From: Pseudomonadota bacterium
Lineage (GTDB): Bacteria > Campylobacterota > Campylobacteria > Campylobacterales > Sulfurimonadaceae
Assembly: GCA_043797085.1 (NCBI GenBank)
Contig: JAZDQA010000004.1
Coordinates: 96,001-160,000 of the forward strand
Length of the DNA: 64,000 nucleotides
Direction of reading: 5' to 3'
Shown: piece after piece, positions 2,177 through 60,238 of the stretch
Layout of the letters: every line of letters begins with the position of its first letter
How positions within the stretch are numbered: the first letter of the stretch is position 1
Position numbers and translations under genes: made by a program
Notes under the pieces: generated by a model
The model's input: the letters and a program-made list of their open reading frames with translations, nothing else
The model's database searches: none
Told to the model about the DNA's origin: nothing

Positions 2177-3334
2177 ATGAAACGTTGGATATGGGAACAA
2201 GATGCTTATCCTCATTTTACCTATGATTTGAATACGCTTGAACAGTTGATTCAAGAGGTTTCACTGTCGCAAGGGTATCTGATCGCCATCACCCAAACGA
2301 TGGATCAAAACAATATCGCACAAAGACAACTCGAAGCGCTGATGAATGAAGCGATCAGCACCTCCGCAATCGAGGGAGAGATTCTCAATCGTGACAGTGT
2401 CAAAGCCTCTATCCAACGCAAGCTTGGGTTTACAGAGATAGACTCTTCAAAACGAGATATTTCGACCGATTATTTGATAGAAATACTTATCGATGCCAAT
2501 ACGAATTACGATCAAGATTTAACGCTTGAACGACTTTTTGGATGGCACAACGCTCTTTTTCCTCGTGGATATAGCGGTCTAAATAAGATCAACGTTGCCA
2601 CATTTAGAGGCGAAGAGGATATGGAGATTGTAGGCGGTGCCGCAGGAAAAGAGAAAACATTTTATCTAGCACCACCTAGAACGATGCTCGAAGAGGAGAT
2701 GAGTAGATATCTGCATTGGTTTAACGAAACGCCTGCAAGTTTGCTAAAGGCGTGTATCGCCCATCTATGGTTTGTTATTATTCACCCTTTTGATGATGGT
2801 AACGGTCGTATTGCCCGTGCCATCACCGATTTGGTTTTATCAAAAATAGAAAAATCGACCGTGTCGAGACTCTATTCGATGTCAAGTGCAATTAACAGTG
2901 ATCGCAAGGGGTATTACCGTGCGTTGGAACAGACAACGGGGTATGTCAGAAAAGAGACCAACCATATGAATATTACCATTTGGTGTAAATGGTTCCTCTC
3001 GACATTGAATACTGCATTGAGTGATACTAAAAAAAAGCTGGGATATATTGTCCAAAAAACGACGTTTTGGGATAAGTATAGAAATTATGATCTAAATCCA
3101 AGACAAACTAAAGTGCTTAATAAAATCCTCGATATGGGAGTTGAAAACTTTCAAGGCTCTTTGAGCAAAAAAAAATATATGACAATAGCAGACTCTGCAT
3201 CCACCACTGCCTCAAGAGATATTACACAGTTACTCGAAATAGGGTGTATCCGTCAAATTGAGGGGACGAATGGGAGAAATGTACGTTATGAGATTGTTTT
3301 TAGAACTGCTCCATGTGGTGTAGAGGAACAGTAG
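2177..3334 (+). CDS. Fic family protein (DUF4172-type N-terminus, C-terminal HTH)
   Basis: Fic motif HPFDDGNGRIAR; TSAIEGE inhibitory-type motif; WIWEQ..YPHF N-terminus; TASRDI HTH. Confidence 0.92.
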   Translation: MKRWIWEQDAYPHFTYDLNTLEQLIQEVSLSQGYLIAITQTMDQNNIAQRQLEALMNEAISTSAIEGEILNRDSVKASIQRKLGFTEIDSSKRDISTDYLIEILIDANTNYDQDLTLERLFGWHNALFPRGYSGLNKINVATFRGEEDMEIVGGAAGKEKTFYLAPPRTMLEEEMSRYLHWFNETPASLLKACIAHLWFVIIHPFDDGNGRIARAITDLVLSKIEKSTVSRLYSMSSAINSDRKGYYRALEQTTGYVRKETNHMNITIWCKWFLSTLNTALSDTKKKLGYIVQKTTFWDKYRNYDLNPRQTKVLNKILDMGVENFQGSLSKKKYMTIADSASTTASRDITQLLEIGCIRQIEGTNGRNVRYEIVFRTAPCGVEEQ

Positions 3335-41595: not shown

Positions 41596-44014
41596 GCGGT
41601 TCCTTTGGAAGTGGTCGATTATTGGCATATTCGTCAAACGCGATCTTACCCGCACCGCAGGCAAAACATCCATGACCTGCTTGTACCGGCCAGCTAGTTC
41701 CCTCATTAAACTTTACTTGTGGGCAGTTCATTTGGGCATACGGTCCTTTGCATCCCATTTGAAACAAACACCACCCTTTTTTTGCCCCTTCATCCCCCCA
41801 TTCGAGGACAAACTCACCCAAATCAAAATGTCCGCGCCGTTCGCAGTTATCATGAACTAAAAAACCATACGCCCACTCAGGACGATTTTTGGCATCCAGT
41901 TTTGGAAATTCGTCAAACATCATAAAATGAAGCAATGTTCCTACAATATTGATTGGATTAACCGGACATCCGGGGAGATTGATAATGTCTTTTCGCCCCA
42001 GTGCTTCTGAAACTCCAACAGCACCGGTCGGATTAGGTGCGGCAGCTACGACACCGCCATCATACGCACACGATCCCACGGCGATGACAGCTGCCGCATC
42101 TTTTGCAACACGTTGAAGCAGTGCATGTCCTGTTTCCCCTTTTGGACCGATACGTAAATATTTTCCATCCAGACCAAGCGGTACTGCTCCCTCGACAATC
42201 AAGATGTATTTACCTTTGTCATATTTGATAATATTATCAAGCACGTTTTCCGATTCTTCACCCGATCCAGCCATTAGTAGCTCATGGTAATCAAGCGAAA
42301 TGTATTTAAGAATCAAATCATCGATTTTCGGATGAGATGATTTGATAAACCCTTCTGAATTTCCACTGCAATCAGAGAGTTCCAACCAGATGATAGGGAT
42401 TTTATTGAGCTGCGCAACCCCCTCTTTCACCACCTCTTCGAAATCAGGATGCAAATGCATCGTCGCCGTAATCATCGAAACCCATTGGTTATATTCTCGG
42501 CTCATATCAAAAGAAGCGATTGCTTCTTCAAGATTTTCGGCACTGAGCTGATTTTTAGGATGGATGGTATTGTATTTATTGATCCGTGCACGAACACGTT
42601 CCAGCTCCGCTTCTTTAAGCTTATTTTCTCGTTCCTCTCTAAGTCGTACAGCTTCTTCATGATTTACTGGCGTAGCCGCGATCAAAGCAGAAATATCTTG
42701 CTTGCAACGACCGCATACACGACCTGCATTGGTATACGGTTTAAGTTCGATAAATGAAGTAATAGCATTGAGCTTGATAATTTCAATGAGATCTTCTTCA
42801 TAAGCACTCTCACAACTGCAAACCAAACGACCCTTTGTGCTATTGAGACGATTTGAGTAAAAGTACGCCGGATCAATTGTCTCATTTTTTTCCATTAATT
42901 TCTTGAGATGGATCAAATCAATATTGGTATTAATACCGATAAAGCGCTGGAGGTGATCATGATTGATGATGTATTGATCGATTCGATTTTTATGGGTGAT
43001 GAGGATGGTTTCGTTCTCTGAATCTTTAGGATTATAATTTGGGGAACGCACATCAGCAAAAAGAAATGAACCCACTTTTAGCCCATCAATAGACACCGTT
43101 TGCTCAAAAGTTTTTCTTTCTAGCCCCAACAATGTGTTAATAGCAACATCAGCTTGCAATGTACATTCTTTTACTCGTCCGGCAATAAATCCATTTTTAC
43201 GCAATTGTGCTGCTTCACCGACACAATAAATATCAGGATTAGAGGTACGCATTGTGTCGTCTACTAAAATACCTTTGTCACAATCGAGCACTCCACGGGC
43301 GAAAGAGACATTAGGATCAATCCCTGCTCCAAAAATAAGAAAAAGATTGTCAATCGTTCTATGACGCGTTTGGATTTCAGTGATTTCATTTTTATTAACT
43401 TTTTTACTGACTATCTCATCATTAAAATCGATTCGTATTCGTGGATCTTGTTCGAAAATTCCTCGTAGCAGTGCAATCCCCTCTCGACTTAAATCCGATG
43501 AATAAAGATGCTCTTTTCGAGCAAGTAAAGTAATTGATTCTGGGAATGGACTGCGCATCAGTGTATCAAGAAGTTCCAGCCCGATAGGTCCAACTCCCAC
43601 TATCACGATATTCTTTCCGATTATTCCTTGCTCTATTTTTGTACACTCTTTTTCACTTCGAAACGTCGATGCATTCTTGATTCCCTGAATATCAAAAGGT
43701 GCTTTAGGCTGAGATCCGGTTGCAATTATGAGTTTATCATAGGAAAATGCTGCATGTTCACTTAAAATACGTTTGGTTGAGACATCAATACCGACAATTG
43801 CCTGATTGAGTTCCAAACGTACTTTAGGATCAAGATCAAGGGTAATCGACTCAACGCATTGGCTTTTTTCCACAAGAGCGCAAAGATGAATTCGGTCATA
43901 CGGAGAATGAGATTCCTCAGATACAATCAGAACCTCACACGAACGATCCTTTTGCAATAACGTGTTAGCAAGATATACAGCAGATATTCCACCGCCTACA
44001 ATCACAATCCGCAT
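41588..44014 (-). CDS. Fusion of NirB-like FAD/NAD(P)H oxidoreductase, BFD [2Fe-2S] domain and [NiFe]-hydrogenase small subunit
   Basis: GGGISA, ATGS, GVGPIG, YCVGE; CSC...CGRC; WLELSDCSGN, VEGAVP, GSCA, LPGCP, HDNC, GWCLFQMGCKGP, HGCFAC. Confidence 0.92.
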   Translation of the reverse strand: MRIVIVGGGISAVYLANTLLQKDRSCEVLIVSEESHSPYDRIHLCALVEKSQCVESITLDLDPKVRLELNQAIVGIDVSTKRILSEHAAFSYDKLIIATGSQPKAPFDIQGIKNASTFRSEKECTKIEQGIIGKNIVIVGVGPIGLELLDTLMRSPFPESITLLARKEHLYSSDLSREGIALLRGIFEQDPRIRIDFNDEIVSKKVNKNEITEIQTRHRTIDNLFLIFGAGIDPNVSFARGVLDCDKGILVDDTMRTSNPDIYCVGEAAQLRKNGFIAGRVKECTLQADVAINTLLGLERKTFEQTVSIDGLKVGSFLFADVRSPNYNPKDSENETILITHKNRIDQYIINHDHLQRFIGINTNIDLIHLKKLMEKNETIDPAYFYSNRLNSTKGRLVCSCESAYEEDLIEIIKLNAITSFIELKPYTNAGRVCGRCKQDISALIAATPVNHEEAVRLREERENKLKEAELERVRARINKYNTIHPKNQLSAENLEEAIASFDMSREYNQWVSMITATMHLHPDFEEVVKEGVAQLNKIPIIWLELSDCSGNSEGFIKSSHPKIDDLILKYISLDYHELLMAGSGEESENVLDNIIKYDKGKYILIVEGAVPLGLDGKYLRIGPKGETGHALLQRVAKDAAAVIAVGSCAYDGGVVAAAPNPTGAVGVSEALGRKDIINLPGCPVNPINIVGTLLHFMMFDEFPKLDAKNRPEWAYGFLVHDNCERRGHFDLGEFVLEWGDEGAKKGWCLFQMGCKGPYAQMNCPQVKFNEGTSWPVQAGHGCFACGAGKIAFDEYANNRPLPKEPHE

Positions 44015-44102
44015 TCTTTATCCTTGTTATGAACTCTTCACTATTATGCCACATCAATGATAAGTCACGATAAAATAAACACCAATTAGTTATACTTTCA
44101 GT

Positions 44103-44309
44103 ATGGAATCAACTAAAGAGCAACTTATCAGCGATATTCAAAATTTACTGAACCGTTACGACGGATTAAAACCAACAACAATAAATCCAAATCTTTTGCA
44201 ATTTATGGACAAACCAACTCTTCTGCAAATCATTAACTCCGTGTTAAAGCAGCAAGAAAACGCAAATGAAGACAATGTTGAGTGGTTACAACAATTTAAA
44301 ACGATATAA
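44103..44309 (+). CDS. Small hypothetical protein
   Basis: 68-aa ORF occupying an intergenic gap, with upstream TATACT. Confidence 0.6.
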   Translation: MESTKEQLISDIQNLLNRYDGLKPTTINPNLLQFMDKPTLLQIINSVLKQQENANEDNVEWLQQFKTI

Positions 44310-44417
44310 TTTTCTTTTTTAATATTGTTAATAACTGTTTTAGAATATAATTACACTGTAAATTACAATGACATTTTTTAACATGTTGTTGAATATCATA
44401 TTTTAGGAGCCTTACCT

Positions 44418-44963
44418 ATGTCTAATATTGACTTGATCCAACTTACAGAACAAACCAAAAAACTTACAGCAATGGTTGTAGAAGACGAAGTGGTAGCCAA
44501 TGACCTTCTAAGTTCTACGTTTAAAAACTTTTTTGCAGATGTAACATCTGCTTATAATGGTGCAGAAGCTTTACGTGTATACGAAAAAATGAATCCGGAC
44601 ATCGTATTTGTTGACATTATCATGCCAGAAATTGATGGTATCGAACTTTCTCGCCGTATTCGTGCGATCAATCCATCACAAATCATTATCGTTATTTCAG
44701 CAAGTAATGATATTCAAAAGATTTCAGAATCAATCGAAGTTGGTGTAAACAGCTTTATCCAAAAGCCAATCGATACTAAAAAAATTCTTGAAATGCTTCA
44801 CAATATCGTTTCCCTTATCTCTAAGCGTAAGAAAATAGAAACAAAAACATTTTCAATCTCATTGCCATTAGATGTATATGAATTGGTAGATGACAATGCA
44901 AAAGCAGAGAGTATCTCTAAAAATGCTGTTATCATCCGTGCATTGCGTTCATTTTACAACTAA
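44418..44963 (+). CDS. Response regulator with C-terminal ribbon-helix-helix-like domain
   Basis: VVEDE, VDIIMP..DG, ISA, KP; tail TFSISLPLDVYELVD..AKAESISKNAVIIRALR. Confidence 0.85.
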   Translation: MSNIDLIQLTEQTKKLTAMVVEDEVVANDLLSSTFKNFFADVTSAYNGAEALRVYEKMNPDIVFVDIIMPEIDGIELSRRIRAINPSQIIIVISASNDIQKISESIEVGVNSFIQKPIDTKKILEMLHNIVSLISKRKKIETKTFSISLPLDVYELVDDNAKAESISKNAVIIRALRSFYN

Positions 44964-44980
44964 ATTTTCCTAAGTTTTAG

Positions 44981-45004
44981 ATCATAATGGATTTCCATTA
45001 TGAT
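44981..45004 (+). terminator. Hairpin after the response regulator
   Basis: ATCATAATGG-ATTT-CCATTATGAT followed by a T-rich tract. Confidence 0.6.
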
Positions 45005-45066
45005 TTAGCTTTTTTTCAGCTTTTTATCACTATAATTTCGGCTCAGGAATTAATTCCTACAAAAGT

Positions 45067-45141
45067 GGCTCCATCATCTAATGGTTAGGATTTCAGATTT
45101 TCATTCTGGTCATAGGGGTTCAAATCCCCTTGGAGTCACCA
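45067..45141 (+). tRNA. tRNA-Glu(TTC)
   Basis: GGCTCCA/TGGAGTC acceptor stem, TCAGA-TT-TTC-AT-TCTGG anticodon arm, GGTTCAAATCC T arm, encoded CCA; TATAAT at 45031. Confidence 0.96.
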
Positions 45142-45189
45142 TAACACTTTCCCTACACAACGTACTTTCAACCACTTTAAGCTTTATTG

Positions 45190-45215
45190 GGTCTCCGCTT
45201 GGGTCTCCACTTTTT
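45190..45215 (+). repeat. Paired GGTCTCC repeats, candidate integrase arm sites (left)
   Basis: GGTCTCC at 45190 and 45202 (12-bp period); GGTCTCCACTTTTT also occurs at 50445. Confidence 0.65.
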
Positions 45216-45238
45216 TCTTTAAGTTTTCATTATTAACC

Positions 45239-45499
45239 CTATCCTATTTGATTTTTTGCTATCAACTTATTCACTTCTACGATCTTATAAAAGAGTTTTC
45301 CTCCGAATTTATAATATGGTATTTCATTATTCATCCTCATTTTTGCCAATGTCGATTTATTGAATGCGAAAAGGCTAATTAATTCAGCCTCCGTTGCAAA
45401 CTCTTTTTCAGGTTGTATCAGTGCTTTTAACTGCTCCATTATTTTGTTCTGAAACACCACTAAGTCACTTTTAGTAATCAGGTCAATTGTTGCCATCAC
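45239..45499 (-). CDS. Excisionase-like HTH protein
   Basis: 86 aa; KSTLAKMR..NEIPYYKFGGKLFY, Xis/HTH_17-like. Confidence 0.8.
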   Translation of the reverse strand: MMATIDLITKSDLVVFQNKIMEQLKALIQPEKEFATEAELISLFAFNKSTLAKMRMNNEIPYYKFGGKLFYKIVEVNKLIAKNQIG

Positions 45500-45508
45500 C
45501 CTGCTCCA

Positions 45509-46822
45509 TTAAAATACAATCTCTTCAGATATATCACGTTTTTCTATTTCGTCCCGAATATCTTGCAAATGTTTAAACGCATTGTCATATGCCATAAACG
45601 GCTCTTCCATTTCACTTTCCATGAAACGCAAATGTTCTAGTAACTCATAGTCAGTTAGCATCTCTAATCTTGGAAATCTATAGGGAGCAAGATATTGTTT
45701 ATAAATAAGCTTGTAGCTAAACTTAAACTCTTTTTTCTTAAGACGCTCTAACTCAGATTGTACTTTTCCATAAAACTGTTCATCAAGAATAACACCATCA
45801 ATATCACATCGTCTATTAAATGCTAAAAAATCTTTGATTGCTTCTGTTTCAGAATATGTTCTAATTTTTCGTTTCAGCCGATGAAGCGGTAAGTCTAATT
45901 GTAAAAAATTCTCAAGCGCGTAGCTCTCTTTTAAGTAAGTCCATAATGGCAGTGTTGTAGCACGGTTCTTATTATTTGAATTTTTCTCATTCTCCGTAAT
46001 ACTGGAAAGATCAACTAAACGTAAAGCATCCATACAGTCTCTAAAGAGCGCATCGGCTTGTTTAAATAAATCGTCAATCGTATTAATGCCATACACTCGA
46101 AGCAAATGCTCGCGATGCATCTCAAACTCAAGATTAAACACCGTTTTTCTTATTTCAAAGCCATTATTTAAGAAATGTTCCCACATCATTTCGTATTTAT
46201 CCGTACGTTCCAGCTCTAAGCTTTTATTGTACATTCGTAAAAGAAACGGCTTTTTTCCAATATAAAGAGTTTGCATTCCATATTTGGACGCAATTTCTTT
46301 AGAAATCGTTTGGTAAATACGTTTACGCGTCACAAACATTTCTTTTGTGATCCATGAAAAATCATCTTGAACAAAGATATTCAAATCCGCACGGGTTATC
46401 GGCTTAAGTCCAGTTATAAAACCATCAAGTAAGTCATCAATAAGTTTCACGATTGCTTTAATGCCAAAAGTATAAATACCTTTCGCGTTTAGCTGAACTT
46501 GAATATTGTGAAGGTTCTTATTTTTAGTTGGGTCTTTGAAAGCAATACGAAAAAGCGAATCTGAATGTTTTAACCAATAAAACCCTTGATCTTTACCTGA
46601 AAAAACTAGCTGTTGTTCATTGATCGTGATTGATATGTCAGAATATTTATACATCGTATTATTCTTTTCAAGTTGTGACTTCTTCTCTTCAATCTGATCG
46701 ATTATGTCTAAAAAAAGATCGTCATAGTATGAATTAGTTTGATAAAAATAGTAGAGAGTATCAATCCCACTAATTGTTTTTGGTAAATGTGTTAATTTGA
46801 GTTCACTATTGAGATTAAGCAT
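45509..46822 (-). CDS. Rolling-circle replication initiation protein (Rep_trans-like)
   Basis: SGIDTLY, ITRADLNI, TLYIGK, LRMYNK, NLEFEM motifs in the order expected for Rep_trans. Confidence 0.75.
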   Translation of the reverse strand: MLNLNSELKLTHLPKTISGIDTLYYFYQTNSYYDDLFLDIIDQIEEKKSQLEKNNTMYKYSDISITINEQQLVFSGKDQGFYWLKHSDSLFRIAFKDPTKNKNLHNIQVQLNAKGIYTFGIKAIVKLIDDLLDGFITGLKPITRADLNIFVQDDFSWITKEMFVTRKRIYQTISKEIASKYGMQTLYIGKKPFLLRMYNKSLELERTDKYEMMWEHFLNNGFEIRKTVFNLEFEMHREHLLRVYGINTIDDLFKQADALFRDCMDALRLVDLSSITENEKNSNNKNRATTLPLWTYLKESYALENFLQLDLPLHRLKRKIRTYSETEAIKDFLAFNRRCDIDGVILDEQFYGKVQSELERLKKKEFKFSYKLIYKQYLAPYRFPRLEMLTDYELLEHLRFMESEMEEPFMAYDNAFKHLQDIRDEIEKRDISEEIVF

Positions 46823-46861
46823 CTGATGTCCTTATTTTGTATTATGTATGATGTTTAGATA

Positions 46862-47331
46862 GGAGTGTTACTAGAACGCTCCCAACAAGATCGAAATTAA
46901 TCGATCACAGCCCGAACCTGCGAAAATATTTTCTAAATGTTTAAACAGTGAAATAGTAGTTTTTTTTGAGATTGTCGGGAATAGCGACATTTTGCTGTTT
47001 GAAAGTACCTTGTTGTGGGAGCTATAGAGGGCTCATTGTCGCTATTAGCGACATATCGATTATTTAGACAGAGAAAAATTGGTGCAAGTGTTTGGCGCTT
47101 CGGCCAGCGAATAGCCTTATTTGACGCATAAAGTTGTATTAAAGGGTTTCGCCTACGGCGAGGCTCTGGAAGAAGAAGTATTACGTTGTGGCGAAGAGGC
47201 TTAATCGGCCTAAGTCACCGCGTCTCGGGACAGAGTCCCACGCGGTTTGGCTTGGTCAGGCCTTAGCTAGTGTTACGTTTGGTGTACGCGCGTTTGCGCT
47301 TCCGCATATCGGGTCAGGGGGAATATCCCCC
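46862..47331. other. Candidate replication origin region (hairpins and palindromic repeats)
   Basis: Hairpins at 46862-46882, 47207-47262 and 47317-47331; 20-bp repeats at 46971 and 47035. Confidence 0.55.
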
Positions 47332-47417
47332 GCAGACAGCCCCCTCATAAATGAAAAACCTAATATAAGATATCTTAGTTATACTACTTACAAAATATAT
47401 TTTTAGGAAAAAGCATT

Positions 47418-48392
47418 ATGAATTTACCTGCTACTGATTTAACACAAGGTGATTATAAATGTTACCTAGCTGTCATGGATGCAAAAACTGTCTATGAACA
47501 TTCAATTGTATCAAGAGCAGTTGATGATCCTGACAAAGGTTATCAAAGACACTTAGATGAGAAACGGGCAAAAGATATTGCGAATTATTTAGATGATGGT
47601 AATGTCATTCCAGGTTGTATAATTCTTAGTGCTCAAGAATCGGCAAAACTGACTTTTGAGAATGCTAGTATTACTTTTGATGATACTGCAAGTGACGCTT
47701 TTTTTGTTATTGACGGTCAACATAGGCTGTATGGTTCACACATGGCAACTACAGATATAAATTTACCTGTGTACATCTTTCAAGGTTTAGAGATCCAAGA
47801 AGAAATTCAATTGTTTTTAGATGTAAATTCAAAACAAAAAGGTGTGCCAAAAACACTTCGAATAGCTTTGACAAAATTTTTAAATGAACCAGAATCTATC
47901 GAACAAATTCGTCTTGAACTATTTAATAAATTAAATACAGATCCTGAATCACCCTTATTTAACCGATTAAGTAGCTCAACATCTGTTGCAGGAAAATTAT
48001 CACAAGTACCTTTTCAAGATGCGATCAACCCCGTATTAGAAACAAATGTTATGAAAGCATTAGAGTTCGATAAAAAATATATACTCCTTGTAAATATTTT
48101 AAATGCAGCTTCAGATATTCTTACTGAAACATTAGGTGATTCAAAAAGGCTTACCACTACAGTCTTCTTTATTTCACTATTTAAAAACTTTGAATTAATA
48201 TGTAACTTTGCATTAATGTCAGGAGGATATAAATATGAAAACTTTCAAGGGGCAATCCAGCCACTTAAATATATCGATTTTGAAGGCTATGCAGGTACAG
48301 GAAGTGCAGCAAATAAACTAATGACAGATGCAATGAGACAACTCATAGAAAGTCATTATCATAAATTAAATAATGTCGATAACTTATTTTAA
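47418..48392 (+). CDS. DGQHR-domain (DndB-like) protein
   Basis: GYQR.LD..R...IA.YL, IDGQHR, LFLDVN..QK.V. Confidence 0.9.
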   Translation: MNLPATDLTQGDYKCYLAVMDAKTVYEHSIVSRAVDDPDKGYQRHLDEKRAKDIANYLDDGNVIPGCIILSAQESAKLTFENASITFDDTASDAFFVIDGQHRLYGSHMATTDINLPVYIFQGLEIQEEIQLFLDVNSKQKGVPKTLRIALTKFLNEPESIEQIRLELFNKLNTDPESPLFNRLSSSTSVAGKLSQVPFQDAINPVLETNVMKALEFDKKYILLVNILNAASDILTETLGDSKRLTTTVFFISLFKNFELICNFALMSGGYKYENFQGAIQPLKYIDFEGYAGTGSAANKLMTDAMRQLIESHYHKLNNVDNLF

Positions 48393-48395
48393 TAT

Positions 48396-49283
48396 ATGCC
48401 AATTATTGCGTTTAAAGAAAGCATATCTGCTTATCTAAAGGAAATTGACTACAAAGCAGAAACGTATAATTTTTCACCTCTGCATACATTCAAAAATAGT
48501 CTTTTGACAGATCCAAATGTAGCCGTAAACATTTACGCAAAGAATGCATTTTATGTTCAAATCAATACTAATGATTTTAACGAAATTTTAACGAATACAT
48601 TTTATTATAACTACTCAAGATTCCAAGAACAAACTAAACAAATAGAATATTTAAAAGTCTCGACAAGTTCTGCTTGGCTTTTAACAACTATCTATTATGC
48701 ATGTTTTTTTGCTGCTAATGAAATAACAAATTTACATGGGGTATACAATTTAACACTTACAGAAGATGATAAAAAAAAATTGATTCCTAGGAATACATCG
48801 AATCAAGATAGCTTAGTTAGAGATTTCTTAACAAAGGGGCCAACCCACTTTGAAGGAAAAGCGAAGGCAATAGCAGATAATAACACTATACAAATTCATT
48901 TTTTTAGTGGAGGGGGGAAACCGCATGAATTAACATGGAATAATTTGAAAAAAGTTCTGTCATATGGTAGCCGTGCAAGTGAAAACCGCCTTAAGCAACT
49001 CACTCGAATAAAAAATATTTTATCAAATATACAGCAATGGAAAAGACCAAATCAAATCCGTAATGAATGGAATTATTCTAAACCGGAGTTATATCTTGAT
49101 GATGGAAATAGACATAAAGATACGATAATTAATTTCCTTGACAATTTTCAAAGTATAAATAGATGGGCAGCAAGAACATCTAGCAAACGCACAAATATTG
49201 ATGATGATGTTATTAGTATACTTTTTTTATTTGAAATACTCAAAAATACACTTGAAGAATACAAACTAAATATATTAAACTGA
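48396..49283 (+). CDS. Hypothetical protein, possible divergent HEPN fold
   Basis: YYACFFAA helix, G.KPH, RNEWNY; 3 bp after the DGQHR gene; AT-rich. Confidence 0.65.
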   Translation: MPIIAFKESISAYLKEIDYKAETYNFSPLHTFKNSLLTDPNVAVNIYAKNAFYVQINTNDFNEILTNTFYYNYSRFQEQTKQIEYLKVSTSSAWLLTTIYYACFFAANEITNLHGVYNLTLTEDDKKKLIPRNTSNQDSLVRDFLTKGPTHFEGKAKAIADNNTIQIHFFSGGGKPHELTWNNLKKVLSYGSRASENRLKQLTRIKNILSNIQQWKRPNQIRNEWNYSKPELYLDDGNRHKDTIINFLDNFQSINRWAARTSSKRTNIDDDVISILFLFEILKNTLEEYKLNILN

Positions 49284-49296
49284 TTATCAAAAACTT

Positions 49297-50418
49297 TTAG
49301 CTCAGTAAATTCTTTGACACCTCCTGCATCATCCCACTAGACTCTTTTCGTTGAAGCGACAAATATTGCTTAACGGTATTAGTATCTGTATGCCCTAAAA
49401 GTGATGAAAGGTGAATCGCATCAACTCCTTGGCTAGAGAGTGCCGACACGGCAAGATTACGCATCCAGTGATAGCCAAACTCTTCAATCCCTGAATCGGT
49501 ACGGATAGAGTAGATATGCTCTCGTATATCGGTGTATTGTCCACCACCGCGAGGAGATTTAAACACCAAGCCCTCTTTACCAGTATATTTGGCAATTTCC
49601 AATAATGCTATTTTTATATCATCTGAAAGGGTAAATTCTAAATCTATTCCTATTTTGCTTTGCTCTCTTGGAATAATGAAAGTCTTATTTTTCAGATCAA
49701 CATTTTCCCATGTAAGAGAAAGGACTTCATTTCGTCGCCGTCCGTAGAATCCAAATAAAAAGATTGCGCGCATAGTTGGATTGTTTTTATAGACGGAGAG
49801 AATACTCTTATAAACTTTTTTATATTTCTCAACGGCGTTATGGATCACTCTTTTTTCTTCCACCATTTTACGAGTAACGCGGTGACTTTTTTTAATGGGG
49901 GATACTTGGATGGATTCATCTTCAATTGCAAGTTCAAATAGAGGGTGCAGGACTTCCGTTAATCTTTTTTGTGATCGCTTGGATAGGTGAGATACGTTTG
50001 CGCCGATAGTGGTCAAATCTGATGACTTAACCGCTGATATTTCTTTATCACCAATAATCGGTTTGATGTATTTGGTGAAATAGCCTTTGAGTTTATATTT
50101 GTGGTCTTCAGACCAGTTGTTGCGTTTAATTTCAAGAAGACGATCAAAATAATCACTTACACTCAAATGAGGACTGGCGGAACTTGATTTATGTGATGCT
50201 TGCGATAACTCCATAATGTATTCATCAAGTACACGGCGAGCCAGTTCAATGTTTCGCCCTTTGGTGTTTCCATCAACCGTAAATGTTTTACGATAGCGTT
50301 TCTGATTGACTCGAAACTCCATAACGAACTTACTATCATTGTCCTTATGAATCTTTAAATTAGGGACTTCATTCCCTTTATAGCTCACTTGTACGTAGTC
50401 CTTTATGTAAGTTCCCAT
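49297..50418 (-). CDS. int: Tyrosine recombinase/integrase
   Basis: GRRRNEVLSL.W, SK, HWMR, LLGHTD...Y catalytic motifs; adjacent to attR. Confidence 0.93.
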   Translation of the reverse strand: MGTYIKDYVQVSYKGNEVPNLKIHKDNDSKFVMEFRVNQKRYRKTFTVDGNTKGRNIELARRVLDEYIMELSQASHKSSSASPHLSVSDYFDRLLEIKRNNWSEDHKYKLKGYFTKYIKPIIGDKEISAVKSSDLTTIGANVSHLSKRSQKRLTEVLHPLFELAIEDESIQVSPIKKSHRVTRKMVEEKRVIHNAVEKYKKVYKSILSVYKNNPTMRAIFLFGFYGRRRNEVLSLTWENVDLKNKTFIIPREQSKIGIDLEFTLSDDIKIALLEIAKYTGKEGLVFKSPRGGGQYTDIREHIYSIRTDSGIEEFGYHWMRNLAVSALSSQGVDAIHLSSLLGHTDTNTVKQYLSLQRKESSGMMQEVSKNLLS

Positions 50419-50432
50419 TTTAATCCCCTTGT

Positions 50433-50458
50433 GGTCTCCATAAAGGTCTCCACTTTTT
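50433..50458 (+). repeat. Paired GGTCTCC repeats, candidate integrase arm sites (right)
   Basis: GGTCTCC at 50433 and 50445, same 12-bp period as the left pair. Confidence 0.65.
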
Positions 50459-50555
50459 AGATATACGATGGTATCCATATCTATTTAAAGAGCTGTTTAA
50501 GTCCCAATATTAGGGAAATTAATCATAAGGAATCGATAGAAATCAGAGTCAACAC

Positions 50556-50580
50556 GGTTCAAATCCCCTTGGAGTCACCA
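50556..50580 (+). repeat. attR: duplicated 3' end of tRNA-Glu
   Basis: Identical to 45117-45141. Confidence 0.95.
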
Positions 50581-50656
50581 CTTCCTCTCAAAAAATCAAT
50601 CCCTTTTAAACTCTTTTCTGCTAAAATTGCACCTATAATTTACCTTAGGAACTTTA

Positions 50657-51955
50657 ATGCTTCGTTTTGCCCCTAGCCCTACCGGAGATATGCACATTGG
50701 CAATCTTCGAGTCGCTTTATTTAACTATATTATGTCCAGAAAACGCGATGAACCACTTTTAGTTCGTATCGAAGATACCGATAAAGAACGCAATATTCCT
50801 GGAAAAGAGGATGAGATACTCGCCATTCTTGCTTTGTTTAAAATCGAACATCAAGAACATCAGCTTCAAAGTAACAATCTCCGTTTTCATCGTGCGATGG
50901 CACTTCAGCTTTTACATGACAAAAAAGCATTTAATTGTTTTTGTACGCCAGAAACACTCGAAGCAAAACGTGAAGCTAGCAAAGAGAATAAAATCGCATA
51001 CCGTTATGACGGTGCATGTGAGAATCTGCACGCAGAACAAGTCATCGACAATCCTCTCCCTTTTACGATCCGAATTAAAAAACCTTCTGATTCCATCACT
51101 GTTCGCGATATTATCAAAGGAGAGTCTACTTTTGCCCCCAATGATATTGACAGTTTTATCATCATGCGTGCCGATAAATACCCAACCTATAATTTTGCGT
51201 GTGCCGTAGATGATATGCTTTCGGATGTTTCACTGATTATCCGTGGAGAAGATCATCTCAGTAATACACCCAAACAAATCGCCATTCAAAAAGCCCTCGG
51301 ATATGATAGAACAATAGAGTACGCTCATCTGCCTATTATTTTAGGTAACGAGGGTAAAAAAATGTCGAAGCGTGATGATGCATCAAGTGTAAAATGGCTT
51401 CTTGAAGAGGGCTTTTTACCTGAAGCTATTACCAATTATCTTATTTTAATGGGCAATAAAACACCGCTTGAAATCTTTTCACTCGAAGAAGCGATTAAGT
51501 GGTTTGATTTAGAGACGATTTCAAAATCTCCTGCCTATTTCGATATTGATAAACTCAAATTTATTAACCGTGAACACTTAAAAGGTCTTGATCCTAAAGA
51601 GCTTTCACGTTACGTAGGGTTTGCTGATGAAGAGATCGGACGGCTTGCCAAAATATTTTTAGAAGAGGTAAGTACACTCAAAGAGCTGCGTGAAAAGATC
51701 AGTGCTATTTTCGCTCCTAAAATTGTTCCGGACGAGTACAAAGAGGGATTCGATGTTTTACGTGATTTAACGATAAAAGCACCTCATTTTGATGATTATG
51801 ACTCCTATAAGAACTATTTGATGAGTCATTCAGGATTAAAAGGAAAAGCACTCTTTAAACCACTTCGAATTTTGATAGGCGGGGCAGAACATGGTCCTGA
51901 GCTTAATGATCTTTATATGCATCTCAAAAATTATCTCAAAGAGGTTGTCAAATGA
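50657..51955 (+). CDS. gltX: Glutamate--tRNA ligase (GluRS2-type)
   Basis: [23 protein letters not shown]; gltX-yggT-slt order as in Helicobacter/Campylobacter. Confidence 0.95.
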
Positions 51956-58945: not shown

Positions 58946-59595
58946 TTTATCCGTATTTCTTTTAATTCACTTCGTAATTTTTTTTCATTTTCTAGAATGC
59001 TTCTTACAAAAGCATGAAATTCTTTTGAGTGATTCATGTGTTTCAAATGTGCCAATTCATGCACGATAATGTAATCAATATGCTCGTATGATAGCTGCAT
59101 CATGAGGGTATTAAAAGTTACTATCCCTAAACTATTACAACTTCCCCATCGTCGCCGCAGTCGCTTATAACGTATTTCACTTGGGTGCAAGTTCATCTTC
59201 TTAGCATAATAATTGATACGCGAAGGAAGGGTTAGAATTGCTTCATTTTTATAAAATTGATGGTAATATTTTTCAATATTAATACTATTTTCATCTTTTT
59301 TAAGCTTTATATTCAAAAATTCAAAAGAATCTACGTTCATAATATCTCCGCGAAAACGGATGCTTGTTCCTAAAATATGAGCGTATGAAGAACGTTTTTC
59401 AATTGAAATGAGTTTAGAATTAATCCACTCCTCTTTTTCTTTTAGCAGGTTGCGAATTCGTTTGATATCTTTAAGCGGTGTTCGCACTCGAACGCACCCA
59501 TCGTGAGTGATGGTGATATAGGTATTGCGATTGCGCGGTGAAAAAAGGACACTAACCTCTGAGGTTAGTGCATTAAAGGTATTCGATGGGGTCAT
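58942..59595 (-). CDS. YgjP/M48-like (SprT-like) zinc metalloprotein
   Basis: [21 protein letters not shown]. Confidence 0.88.
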
Positions 59596-60238
59596 TGACA
59601 CCTGCACGCTCAAAGCCTCGAAGACGTAAACGACAGCTATCACATACCCCGCATGCTTTATCCTCGCTTTGATAACAACTCCACGTCAAATGCAACGGCA
59701 CATTCAGCTTGATCGCCTCTTGAACGATTTGAGATTTCTGTAAATGGACTAATGGCATTTCGATGGTAATATTCGTTGTCTCTTTTGTCCCTAAATTGGC
59801 TGTATGTTGAAATGATTGGATAAAAGTATCACGACAATCCGGATACCCGCTGCTGTCTTCCTCAACTACCCCTATTGCGATGGCGGAACACCCCTCTTTT
59901 TCAGCAATAGCTGTTGCAATGGAGAGAAAAATACCGTTACGAAAAGGGACATAAGTAATAGGAACACCCGCTTCTACCCCTGTAACTGGCACATCAATGC
60001 TATGGTCGGTTAATGCTGATGCACCGATAGTTTTGAAAAAATCCAAATCAATTTCATATTTTTCACTCACTCCCAAATCGGTACAAACAGCACGATAGGA
60101 TTCCAGTTCTTTGGATACTGTTCGTTGACCGTAATTAAAGTGCAGTGAGATAATCTCGTAACCGCGTGAGCGCATAATGTAAGCAACCAAAGTTGAATCC
60201 ATACCACCGCTCATAATACAAAGTGCTTTTTTAGTCAT
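59573..60238 (-). CDS. queC: 7-cyano-7-deazaguanine synthase
   Basis: SGGMDS, YVPFRN, YPDCR, SCY...CGVCDSC. Confidence 0.96.

Follow-up and report, generated by a model that had tools for sequence, protein, structure and literature searches.

The 64,000-nt stretch of DNA analyzed here (the window; contig JAZDQA010000004.1, positions 96,001 to 160,000 of the forward strand, from a Campylobacterota bacterium of the Sulfurimonadaceae) contains an integrative element of 5,439 bp whose sole non-backbone genes are a pair formed by a DGQHR protein gene (gene 1) and the gene of a partner protein of an unnamed family (gene 2), both lying on the + strand and opposite to the three - strand backbone genes (Table 1). 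The element is bounded by a perfect 25-nt direct repeat that equals the 3' end of a tRNA-Glu gene, and the tyrosine integrase, the tRNA target and the flanking direct repeats together identify it as a tRNA-integrating element. Gene 1 ends with TAA at 48390-48392 and gene 2 begins with ATG at 48396, leaving a gap of 3 bp, and no part of the region is richer in AT than the pair, with a GC content (GC) of 0.309 compared with 0.346 for the element and 0.404 for the remainder of the window. We re-confirm in this respect what an initial annotation of the window had proposed, namely an AT-rich two-gene operon oriented opposite to the backbone of a mobile element, with a clear DGQHR protein as its first product and with no dndACDE or dpd genes: PADLOC finds no Dnd or Dpd partner among the 48 other window open reading frames (ORFs) of at least 150 aa. 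Two further statements of that annotation, i.e. that the operon has its own TATACT promoter and that it is the sole cargo of the element, hold only in part, since the hexamer is indeed present (with AGGA at 47405-47408, ahead of gene 1) but a sigma-70 consensus scan lists no promoter there, and since the pair does supply the only non-backbone genes but a 266-nt GC-rich stretch upstream of it had been left out of the description. Comparison with other genomes shows that the pair is an operon-like, co-conserved cassette carried on mobile elements.

Table 1. Features of the element and of its integration site (positions refer to the window)
Feature	Position	Strand	Basis or remark
tRNA-Glu (UUC), integration target	45067..45141	+	ARAGORN; Rfam tRNA 57.3 bits
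attL, 25-nt direct repeat, tRNA 3' end	45117..45141	.	Perfect match to 50556-50580
86-aa HTH_17 protein, excisionase/AlpA-like, backbone	45239..45499	-	Pfam HTH_17 E 4.9e-4 (below cut-off); phrog_25262 E 2.5e-6
437-aa replication-initiator-like protein, backbone	45509..46822	-	tblastn to Bacillus plasmids
Palindrome, 17-20 nt, near-perfect, two copies 64 bp apart	46971-46990 and 47035-47054	.	Repeat search
GC-rich, hairpin-rich stretch, 266 nt	47085..47350	+	GC 0.541; between rep-like gene and pair, directly upstream of pair
TATACT, -10-like hexamer	47380..47385	+	Sequence; 32 nt before gene 1 ATG
Gene 1, 324-aa DGQHR (ParB/Srx-fold) protein	47418..48392	+	TIGR03187, Pfam DndB
Gene 2, 295-aa partner protein, unnamed family	48396..49283	+	118 representative relatives
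393-aa tyrosine integrase, backbone	49297..50478	-	Pfam Phage_integrase 54.9 bits; phrog_1 E 3.8e-34
attR, second repeat copy, 25 nt	50556..50580	.	Perfect match to 45117-45141

Gene 1 is assigned to the DGQHR family because it exceeds the curated cut-offs of both TIGR03187 (127.2 bits, cut-off 58.85) and Pfam DndB, PF14072 (53.4 bits, cut-off 29.1), and because the motifs given for the ParB/sulfiredoxin (Srx)-fold domain, i.e. the QR pair, DGQHR and FxxxN (PMC4619093), are invariant. When gene 1 is aligned with 58 relatives, G41, Q43, R44, D99, G100, Q101, H102, R103 and F133 do not vary and N137 hardly does, and Q43 R44, D99-R103, F133 and N137 are all invariant across ten loci of the pair. 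The models of the named subfamilies respond much less: DpdB (NF041060) reaches 60 bits for a cut-off of 300 and DGQHR_dnd_1 reaches 73.6 for a cut-off of 450, DndB (TIGR03233) is not matched, PADLOC returns a partial DpdB match only, and GmrSD_N (DUF262, PF03235) remains below its cut-off of 33.2 with 14 bits and an E-value of 0.055. At least 200 relatives are found at E<=1e-10, nearly all of 320-340 aa, and those that are named carry the label 'DGQHR domain-containing protein' or 'DndB'. The idea that genes 1 and 2 are homologous to each other was discarded, the hhalign probability being 0.4%.

Gene 2, on the other hand, has no match in Pfam, NCBIfam, PADLOC (E<=0.1) or PHROGs, even when the thresholds are permissive. 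When 1.84 billion representative proteins were searched exhaustively with HMMER, 118 relatives emerged at E<=0.001, 84 of which also pass E<=1e-10; their lengths range from 87 to 340 aa, no fused gene 1-gene 2 form is seen among them, and the closest (P0002-P0005) are 56-64% identical. In an alignment of 98 sequences, made of 7 close relatives and 91 further HMMER matches (the 26 matches omitted are all shorter than 270 aa), W94, Y100, Y101, H177, W181, R222, N223, N226 and Y227 are invariant, P218, W225 and W257 are near-invariant, and there is no invariant acidic residue. The strings YYACFFAA, GKPH and RNEWNY, to which the initial annotation had drawn attention, are present and fall on the invariant Y100 Y101, H177 and R222 N223 N226 Y227, respectively; among the 93 representatives of at least 260 aa, the patterns RN..NY and H...W occur in all 93 and YY..[FY] in 92. 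The AlphaFold2 model derived from the 98-sequence alignment combines mixed helices with two beta-hairpins at high confidence, with a predicted local distance difference test score (pLDDT) of 96.4 and a predicted template modeling score of 0.93. Foldseek yields no PDB match at E<=0.001 for either of two gene 2 models, one of pLDDT 82 and one of pLDDT 96 (the best template modeling score, TM, of the latter being about 0.2), nor does the model of pLDDT 96 match the viral collection BFVD at this threshold; a PDB sequence search with a 7-sequence profile gave a best match of E 0.25, taken as noise, and a word-indexed protein search with the 98-sequence profile added no relatives. A likeness to poxvirus uracil-DNA glycosylase that emerged when the latter profile was compared with the PDB was rejected as noise as well (E 0.29-0.5). 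As judged from these searches and predicted models, gene 2 is an undescribed family without detectable structural relatives.

The same data bear on the proposal, contained in the initial annotation, that gene 2 is a HEPN protein. The HEPN catalytic motif is defined as Rx4-6H. All 93 full-length members of the gene 2 family have RN..NY instead, that is, Tyr at the position of the HEPN His, and an RN...H string is encountered anywhere in the sequence in only five of them. Gene 2 itself matches no HEPN profile in Pfam, NCBIfam or PADLOC, and when the 98 members were scanned at E<=1 no family appeared in more than two of them and no HEPN family stood among the best 25 of the 43 families. Together with the lack of any Foldseek match at E<=0.001, these results do not bear out the HEPN call, and membership in that superfamily is not shown. 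There are nevertheless weak leads: in the ESM Atlas, 55% of the nearest named cluster is HEPN_AbiV (score 0.76, a lead only); several of the top, non-significant PDB rows from Foldseek are chains that contain a HEPN domain, namely Roquin (4z30, 4z31, 4qik and 4qil, E 0.24-0.6) and Csx1-Crn2 (8y7f, 8y7g and 8y6z, E 0.7-1.3), with TM values of 0.11-0.16; and, in the AlphaFold2 model, a short helix (residues 218-228) begins with the R-N-x-x-x-aromatic string. With the HEPN ribonucleases (RNases) of abortive infection, such as those of the AbiV type, gene 2 shares the lack of acidic catalytic residues and a helix that opens with an R-N-x-x-x-[aromatic or His] string; it differs from them in its Tyr in place of His and in matching neither a HEPN profile nor, significantly, a solved HEPN structure. 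The Roquin HEPN bundle is described as split by an inserted domain (PMC4614863), and in the gene 2 model the helical core would be split in the same fashion by a beta-rich insert at 116-171. That gene 2 is a derived HEPN-like RNase is a possibility against which we would bet, if not heavily.

The two genes travel together, in line with the operon proposed by the initial annotation. The search with a 9-sequence gene 2 alignment gave eight genome loci encoding a gene 2 relative, and six of these have, immediately upstream of it, a gene 1 ORF that scores 91-159 bits with TIGR03187 and so exceeds its cut-off; the six intact loci belong to a Sulfurovaceae metagenome-assembled genome, Phenylobacterium deserti, Terracidiphilus, two Vicinamibacterales and one further bacterium. 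The other two copies are decayed, one being down to the C-terminal end of the DGQHR protein plus a broken gene 2 (locus L004, 5225-6150) and the other retaining an intact gene 2 ORF beside a degraded gene 1 (L006, 5062-5781). Among plasmids, the 19 records with a tblastn match to gene 2 (15 from Providencia and 4 from Burkholderia glumae) are also the 19 best matches to gene 1, with adjacent coordinates in every case, and the annotation in the two records examined reads 'DGQHR domain-containing protein' followed by 'hypothetical protein'. The sole gene 2 match in the phage collection is the Pseudomonas filamentous phage PfAC19, in which the pair adjoins a repressor and an excisionase. The distribution of the pair thus comprises Campylobacterota, Alpha-, Beta- and Gammaproteobacteria and Acidobacteriota. 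In ten intact loci the two genes are spaced by -29 to +12 nt, and the pairwise identities of gene 1 and gene 2 rise and fall together (Pearson 0.89, Spearman 0.69, over 45 pairs that are not independent of one another). Gene 1 is the better conserved protein in 41 of these 45 comparisons, and the faster divergence of gene 2 would fit an effector under counter-defense pressure or a specificity subunit. Five metagenomic gene 1 and gene 2 relatives have longest source contigs of equal size (4994, 4413, 2187, 2566 and 146874), which is consistent with synteny and no proof of it.

Beyond this core, related arrangements shade off gradually. On a 10-kb Acinetobacter plasmid (L013, 427-4303) a methyltransferase, a NotI-family endonuclease, a DGQHR protein and its partner stand in a tight row, the partner matching the family hidden Markov model at 3.8e-21 and making this a more distant pair. 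For the partner on a Leptospira plasmid, the likeness to gene 2 is confined to the YY helix (hhalign 74% over 35 columns), and on a Sinorhizobium plasmid a longer DGQHR protein is followed by a GIY-YIG nuclease, a different architecture. An Acinetobacter prophage (L016, 2093-4888) has the order cI, methyltransferase, DGQHR and a 294-aa protein; the latter shows no significant kinship to the gene 2 family (hhalign probability 0.15%), even though its H...W and IRN...Y strings line up. Both Acinetobacter loci have a DNA methyltransferase upstream of the DGQHR pair, which may point to a connection between this branch and DNA methylation.

The surroundings of the pair elsewhere are defense-like, as had been expected: genes within 6 kb match PADLOC families at E<=1e-4 in six of the eight genome loci, a tally that has no background rate behind it. 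A Shedu-like SduA (DUF4263) protein is encoded 310 bp downstream of the pair in L006; a KAP NTPase of the PifA/QatA-like kind lies near it in L004; SNF2 helicases (ZorD/DpdE-like) are found together with PD-Lambda-5_A- or PDC-M38A-like proteins in L003, L007 and L008; and the Sulfurovaceae locus, L001, has a PDC-S05 protein nearby and a PIN toxin gene that adjoins the pair. A DUF559 gene occurs in L002, and an IS91 transposase and an integrase in L008. The three Acidobacteriota loci (L003, 6683-11652; L007, 666-4773; L008, 632-2221) contain, beside the pair, several proteins of 340-530 aa with weak matches to PD-Lambda-5_A or PDC-M38A, and in L007 the pair and its neighbors are all on one strand, with gaps of at most 13 nt and one 1-nt overlap, so that they could form a larger composite system. 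On the Providencia plasmid NZ_CP120529.1 (L010, 3768-8264) the pair is placed between umuD and umuC, splitting what is normally a single operon, and the plasmid additionally carries an AbiH-family gene and psiA. The accessory genomes of Pf phages are reported to contain Gabija, Kiwa, retron, IetAS, Avs and ShosTA, and the same report lists PfAC19 only with 'TA; PfsE' (PMC11878078); the pair is therefore not recognized in that listing. One supplementary file of PMC13069673 has no occurrence of the pair.

PADLOC-DB 2.0.0 contains, as we assume, the DzbA/DzbB models of Dazbog, and no PADLOC match to Dazbog is obtained for either gene at E<=0.1. The initial annotation had placed DGQHR domains in Dazbog, which was imprecise: the first of the two Dazbog genes is described as carrying DUF262/PF03235, and the proposal for the system is that methylation of phage DNA triggers abortive infection, toxicity being reported upon expression of a phage cytosine methylase (bioRxiv 10.1101/2022.08.27.505566, PMC10952713). 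What the pair has in common with Dazbog is the two-gene layout, a first gene with the ParB/Srx fold and a second gene without a well-understood domain; what separates them is that DzbA is reported with DUF262 and a motif of the DGQQR type whereas gene 1 has DGQHR and PF14072. In GmrSD, SspE and BrxU a ParB-fold DUF262 domain is described as sensing modified DNA and activating a linked nuclease via NTP binding or hydrolysis (PMC10952713, PMC12065111), and the pair would resemble these and TgvAB, the type IV restriction systems of DUF262 plus DUF1524, in having a ParB-fold NTPase sensor and an effector, which are split or fused in that class and, in its two-gene forms, both required according to these accounts (PMC4619093, PMC10952713, PMC11014532). 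DUF1524, the His-Me finger, is, however, matched by neither gene in Pfam nor present among the families listed for the 98 gene 2 relatives, and gene 2 differs further in its lack of an invariant acidic residue and of a fused form among the 118 relatives. DndB and DpdB share with gene 1 the TIGR03187/PF14072 domain, a similar size and a helical region after the ParB-fold domain, but gene 1 scores far below their equivalog cut-offs, the window has no dndACDE or dpd genes and the conserved neighbor of gene 1 is the gene 2 family. Menshen (NsnABC) and PD-T4-2 are described as ParB-fold/DUF262 defense systems without DUF1524 and with variable effectors (PMC12065111), and in having a ParB-fold-type protein and no DUF1524 they are like the pair; Menshen, as reported, comprises three genes including an ABC-type ATPase, which the pair lacks, and it is not matched in PADLOC. 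Because the pair fails the DUF262 and PADLOC tests, lacks DUF1524 and the ABC ATPase, stays below the DndB and DpdB cut-offs and lacks the partners of these proteins, it stands outside the named systems: it would work like the ParB-fold sensor-plus-effector systems and is a member of none, be it Dazbog, Dnd, Dpd, the GmrSD type or Menshen.

The explanation that we favor, and to which we give an even chance of being correct, is that the pair is a self-contained conflict module, anti-phage and/or anti-plasmid, in which a ParB-type NTP switch or sensor is combined with an effector and carried as cargo by mobile elements. By analogy with DndB, DpdB and the DUF262 domains of GmrSD and SspE, the DGQHR domain of gene 1, with its ParB/Srx fold, would bind NTP and DNA and act as the sensor or switch; gene 1 would also bind and restrain the gene 2 protein; and upon sensing of invader DNA the gene 2 effector would be released, thereby stopping the infection or the host cell. 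The residues H177, R222, N223, N226 and Y227, together with W94, Y100, Y101 and W181, would fit a metal-independent phosphodiesterase (e.g., an RNase) or a nucleobase pocket better than a metal-dependent DNase, metal-independent chemistry being preferred because no acidic residue is invariant whereas H, R, N, N and Y are. A complex of the two proteins receives weak support from structure prediction. The prediction, which used our own alignments, so that its calibration is only rough, gave a score of 0.57 (runs of 0.56, 0.69 and 0.57), compared with 0.00 for the best of three controls; agreement between the runs is at least 0% of contacts, and the partner's pLDDT is at least 81. Of 157 solved complexes, 116 reach the mark, as do 2 of 215 mismatched pairs, and scores of at most 0.60, the tool's 'weak' range, contain only 18 of the 157 solved complexes as well as both of the mismatches that pass. 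We nevertheless read the score as mild support because the conserved, translationally coupled adjacency of the genes constitutes a strong prior. NTP switching, complex formation, effector chemistry and a defense phenotype are things that we infer, and the more specific proposal of the initial annotation, a nucleotide sensor with an RNase effector acting by abortive infection, is reasonable but unproven.

Several considerations pull the other way. The complex score falls in a range graded as weak. The effector role of gene 2 is deduced from residue chemistry only, with no significant nuclease or HEPN profile or fold match, and the DGQHR proteins characterized in the sources at hand, DndB and DpdB, serve DNA-modification machines and not effectors. 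Neither gene matches a complete PADLOC system and gene 2 has no PADLOC match of any kind, while full-text searches for DGQHR, DndB and PF14072/TIGR03187 found no publication naming or testing the pair, the defense-system catalog covered being PADLOC-DB 2.0.0. The count of defense neighbors in six of eight loci, as said, lacks a background rate, some loci have housekeeping genes at their flanks (L001 with homoserine dehydrogenase, L002 with UvrB), and two of the eight genome copies are decayed. The pair would rank as a candidate anti-phage or anti-mobile-element module.

Characterized DGQHR proteins work with DNA-modification machinery, and the pair might be a minimal modification module in which gene 2 modifies or exchanges bases, is loaded onto DNA by the DGQHR ATPase as DpdA is by DpdB, and marks or protects the DNA of the element. 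The ATPase activity of DpdB is reported to drive DpdA-dependent preQ0 insertion (PMC12839542) and DndB accompanies DndACDE, the second-best models for gene 1 are of the DndB and DpdB type, a methyltransferase gene precedes the pair in two distant loci, and the gene 2 aromatics W94, Y100, Y101, W181, W225, Y227 and W257 would suit base flipping or stacking. Gene 2, however, shows no similarity to a tRNA-guanine transglycosylase, methyltransferase, glycosylase or other modification enzyme and has no recognized cofactor-binding motif, nor does a restriction partner accompany the pair in the window or at most loci, and we therefore regard this reading as rather improbable. The predicted contact between the two proteins, weak as its support is (0.57 versus 0.00 for the best control), would likewise suit an addiction module of the toxin-antitoxin kind, in which one protein is toxic, the other neutralizes it, the carrier is stabilized and any phage defense is incidental; such a module would be in keeping with the tight coupling of the genes, with their carriage on plasmids, a filamentous prophage and an integrative element, and with the toxin-antitoxin genes that lie nearby in L001 (PIN) and L013 (BrnTA). 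Yet proteins of 324 and 295 aa are large for a classical type II pair, the NTP-binding signature of gene 1 is intact and is not that of a simple antitoxin fold, and the intact gene 2 beside a degraded gene 1 in L006 speaks against an unrestrained toxin unless that copy is dead, so that the prospects of this explanation appear slim to us.

The ParB-like fold of gene 1 also invites the notion that the pair serves the housekeeping of the mobile elements themselves, as a DNA-binding regulator with an accessory factor for partition, replication control or silencing. ParB-fold 'orphans' are reported to be frequent on mobile elements (bioRxiv 10.1101/2025.10.10.680097), DndB is described as a transcriptional repressor, and the pair adjoins a repressor in PfAC19 and in the Acinetobacter prophage; conversely, it is found at chromosomal loci without nearby mobile-element genes (L001, L002 and L005), the Providencia plasmids already have ParA and ParB, and the invariant polar residues of gene 2 resemble an active or ligand site and not a structural adaptor, all of which makes us consider such a role very improbable. 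The conflict-module explanation can, at the opposite end, be extended to a bolder form, in which gene 2 would represent a new-fold family of metal-independent nucleic-acid-targeting enzymes, or of modified-base readers, switched on by a DGQHR NTPase, and the pair a widespread unnamed two-gene immune system that travels on filamentous phages, plasmids and tRNA-integrating elements and that, in some lineages, is wired behind a methyltransferase and would amount to a new kind of restriction-modification; this extension we hold to be unlikely.

The remaining features of the element concern its maintenance and expression. The 437-aa replication-initiator-like (rep-like) protein has no match in Pfam, NCBIfam, PADLOC or PHROGs; in tblastn it resembles a protein of Bacillus plasmids annotated as 'replication initiation factor' (E 8e-10; 27% identity across 73% of the query), and the Bacillus relative has the identical order of rep, helix-turn-helix and integrase genes. 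The two palindrome copies lie in the divergent region that separates the rep-like gene from the GC-rich stretch and resemble operators or iterons. The GC-rich stretch itself has 54% GC in a setting of 31-35% and contains several perfect hairpins. The RNA fold of 47090-47345 reaches -98.3 kcal/mol on the + strand (z -2.16, with 1 of 200 shuffles equally good), and the fold of the - strand is weaker (-79.4 kcal/mol, z -0.88). No Rfam family is found at E<=1 over 44000-51000, the segment 46823-47417 giving only E 4-7.6, and blastn against the plasmid and phage collections brings up no match to the stretch; the Sulfurovaceae locus does not have it ahead of the pair, the gap there being 18 bp. It may be a leader, a small RNA of the element or part of an origin. 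A rolling-circle single-strand origin, an idea prompted by the adjacent rep-like gene, was set aside on account of unremarkable DNA folds (z -1.06 and -0.27).

Near the attachment sites, a 44-nt repeat that is 70% identical between its copies occurs just inside attL (45172-45215) and again near attR, in the 5'-terminal part of the integrase gene (50415-50458), and each copy has two GGTCTCC-like units that could be arm-type sites of the integrase. The gene at 44418-44963, just upstream of the tRNA-Glu target, encodes a response-regulator receiver protein of 181 aa, the C-terminus of which gives a weak match to ribbon-helix-helix (E 0.0099, below cut-off). Outside the element, 10 kb from the pair, there is a QueC-like gene at 59576-60238, and far from the element 2177-3331 encodes a 385-aa Fic-domain protein that matches SoFic of PADLOC (E 4.5e-37).

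These findings are relevant in the light of the recurrence with which NTPases of the ParB/Srx fold are emerging as sensors in immunity, as in GmrSD, SspE, BrxU, Dazbog, Menshen and TgvAB. Until now the DGQHR branch within that fold has been known only in an accessory role, in the Dnd and Dpd modification machines, and the pair would give it a stand-alone system, adding at the same time a partner protein whose confidently predicted fold matches nothing solved. Since the pair is compact (about 1.9 kb), widespread and present on a Pf prophage of Pseudomonas aeruginosa and on Providencia plasmids, it is easily testable. Its relevance would lie in the conflicts of phages and plasmids with their hosts, in environmental and clinical bacteria alike.

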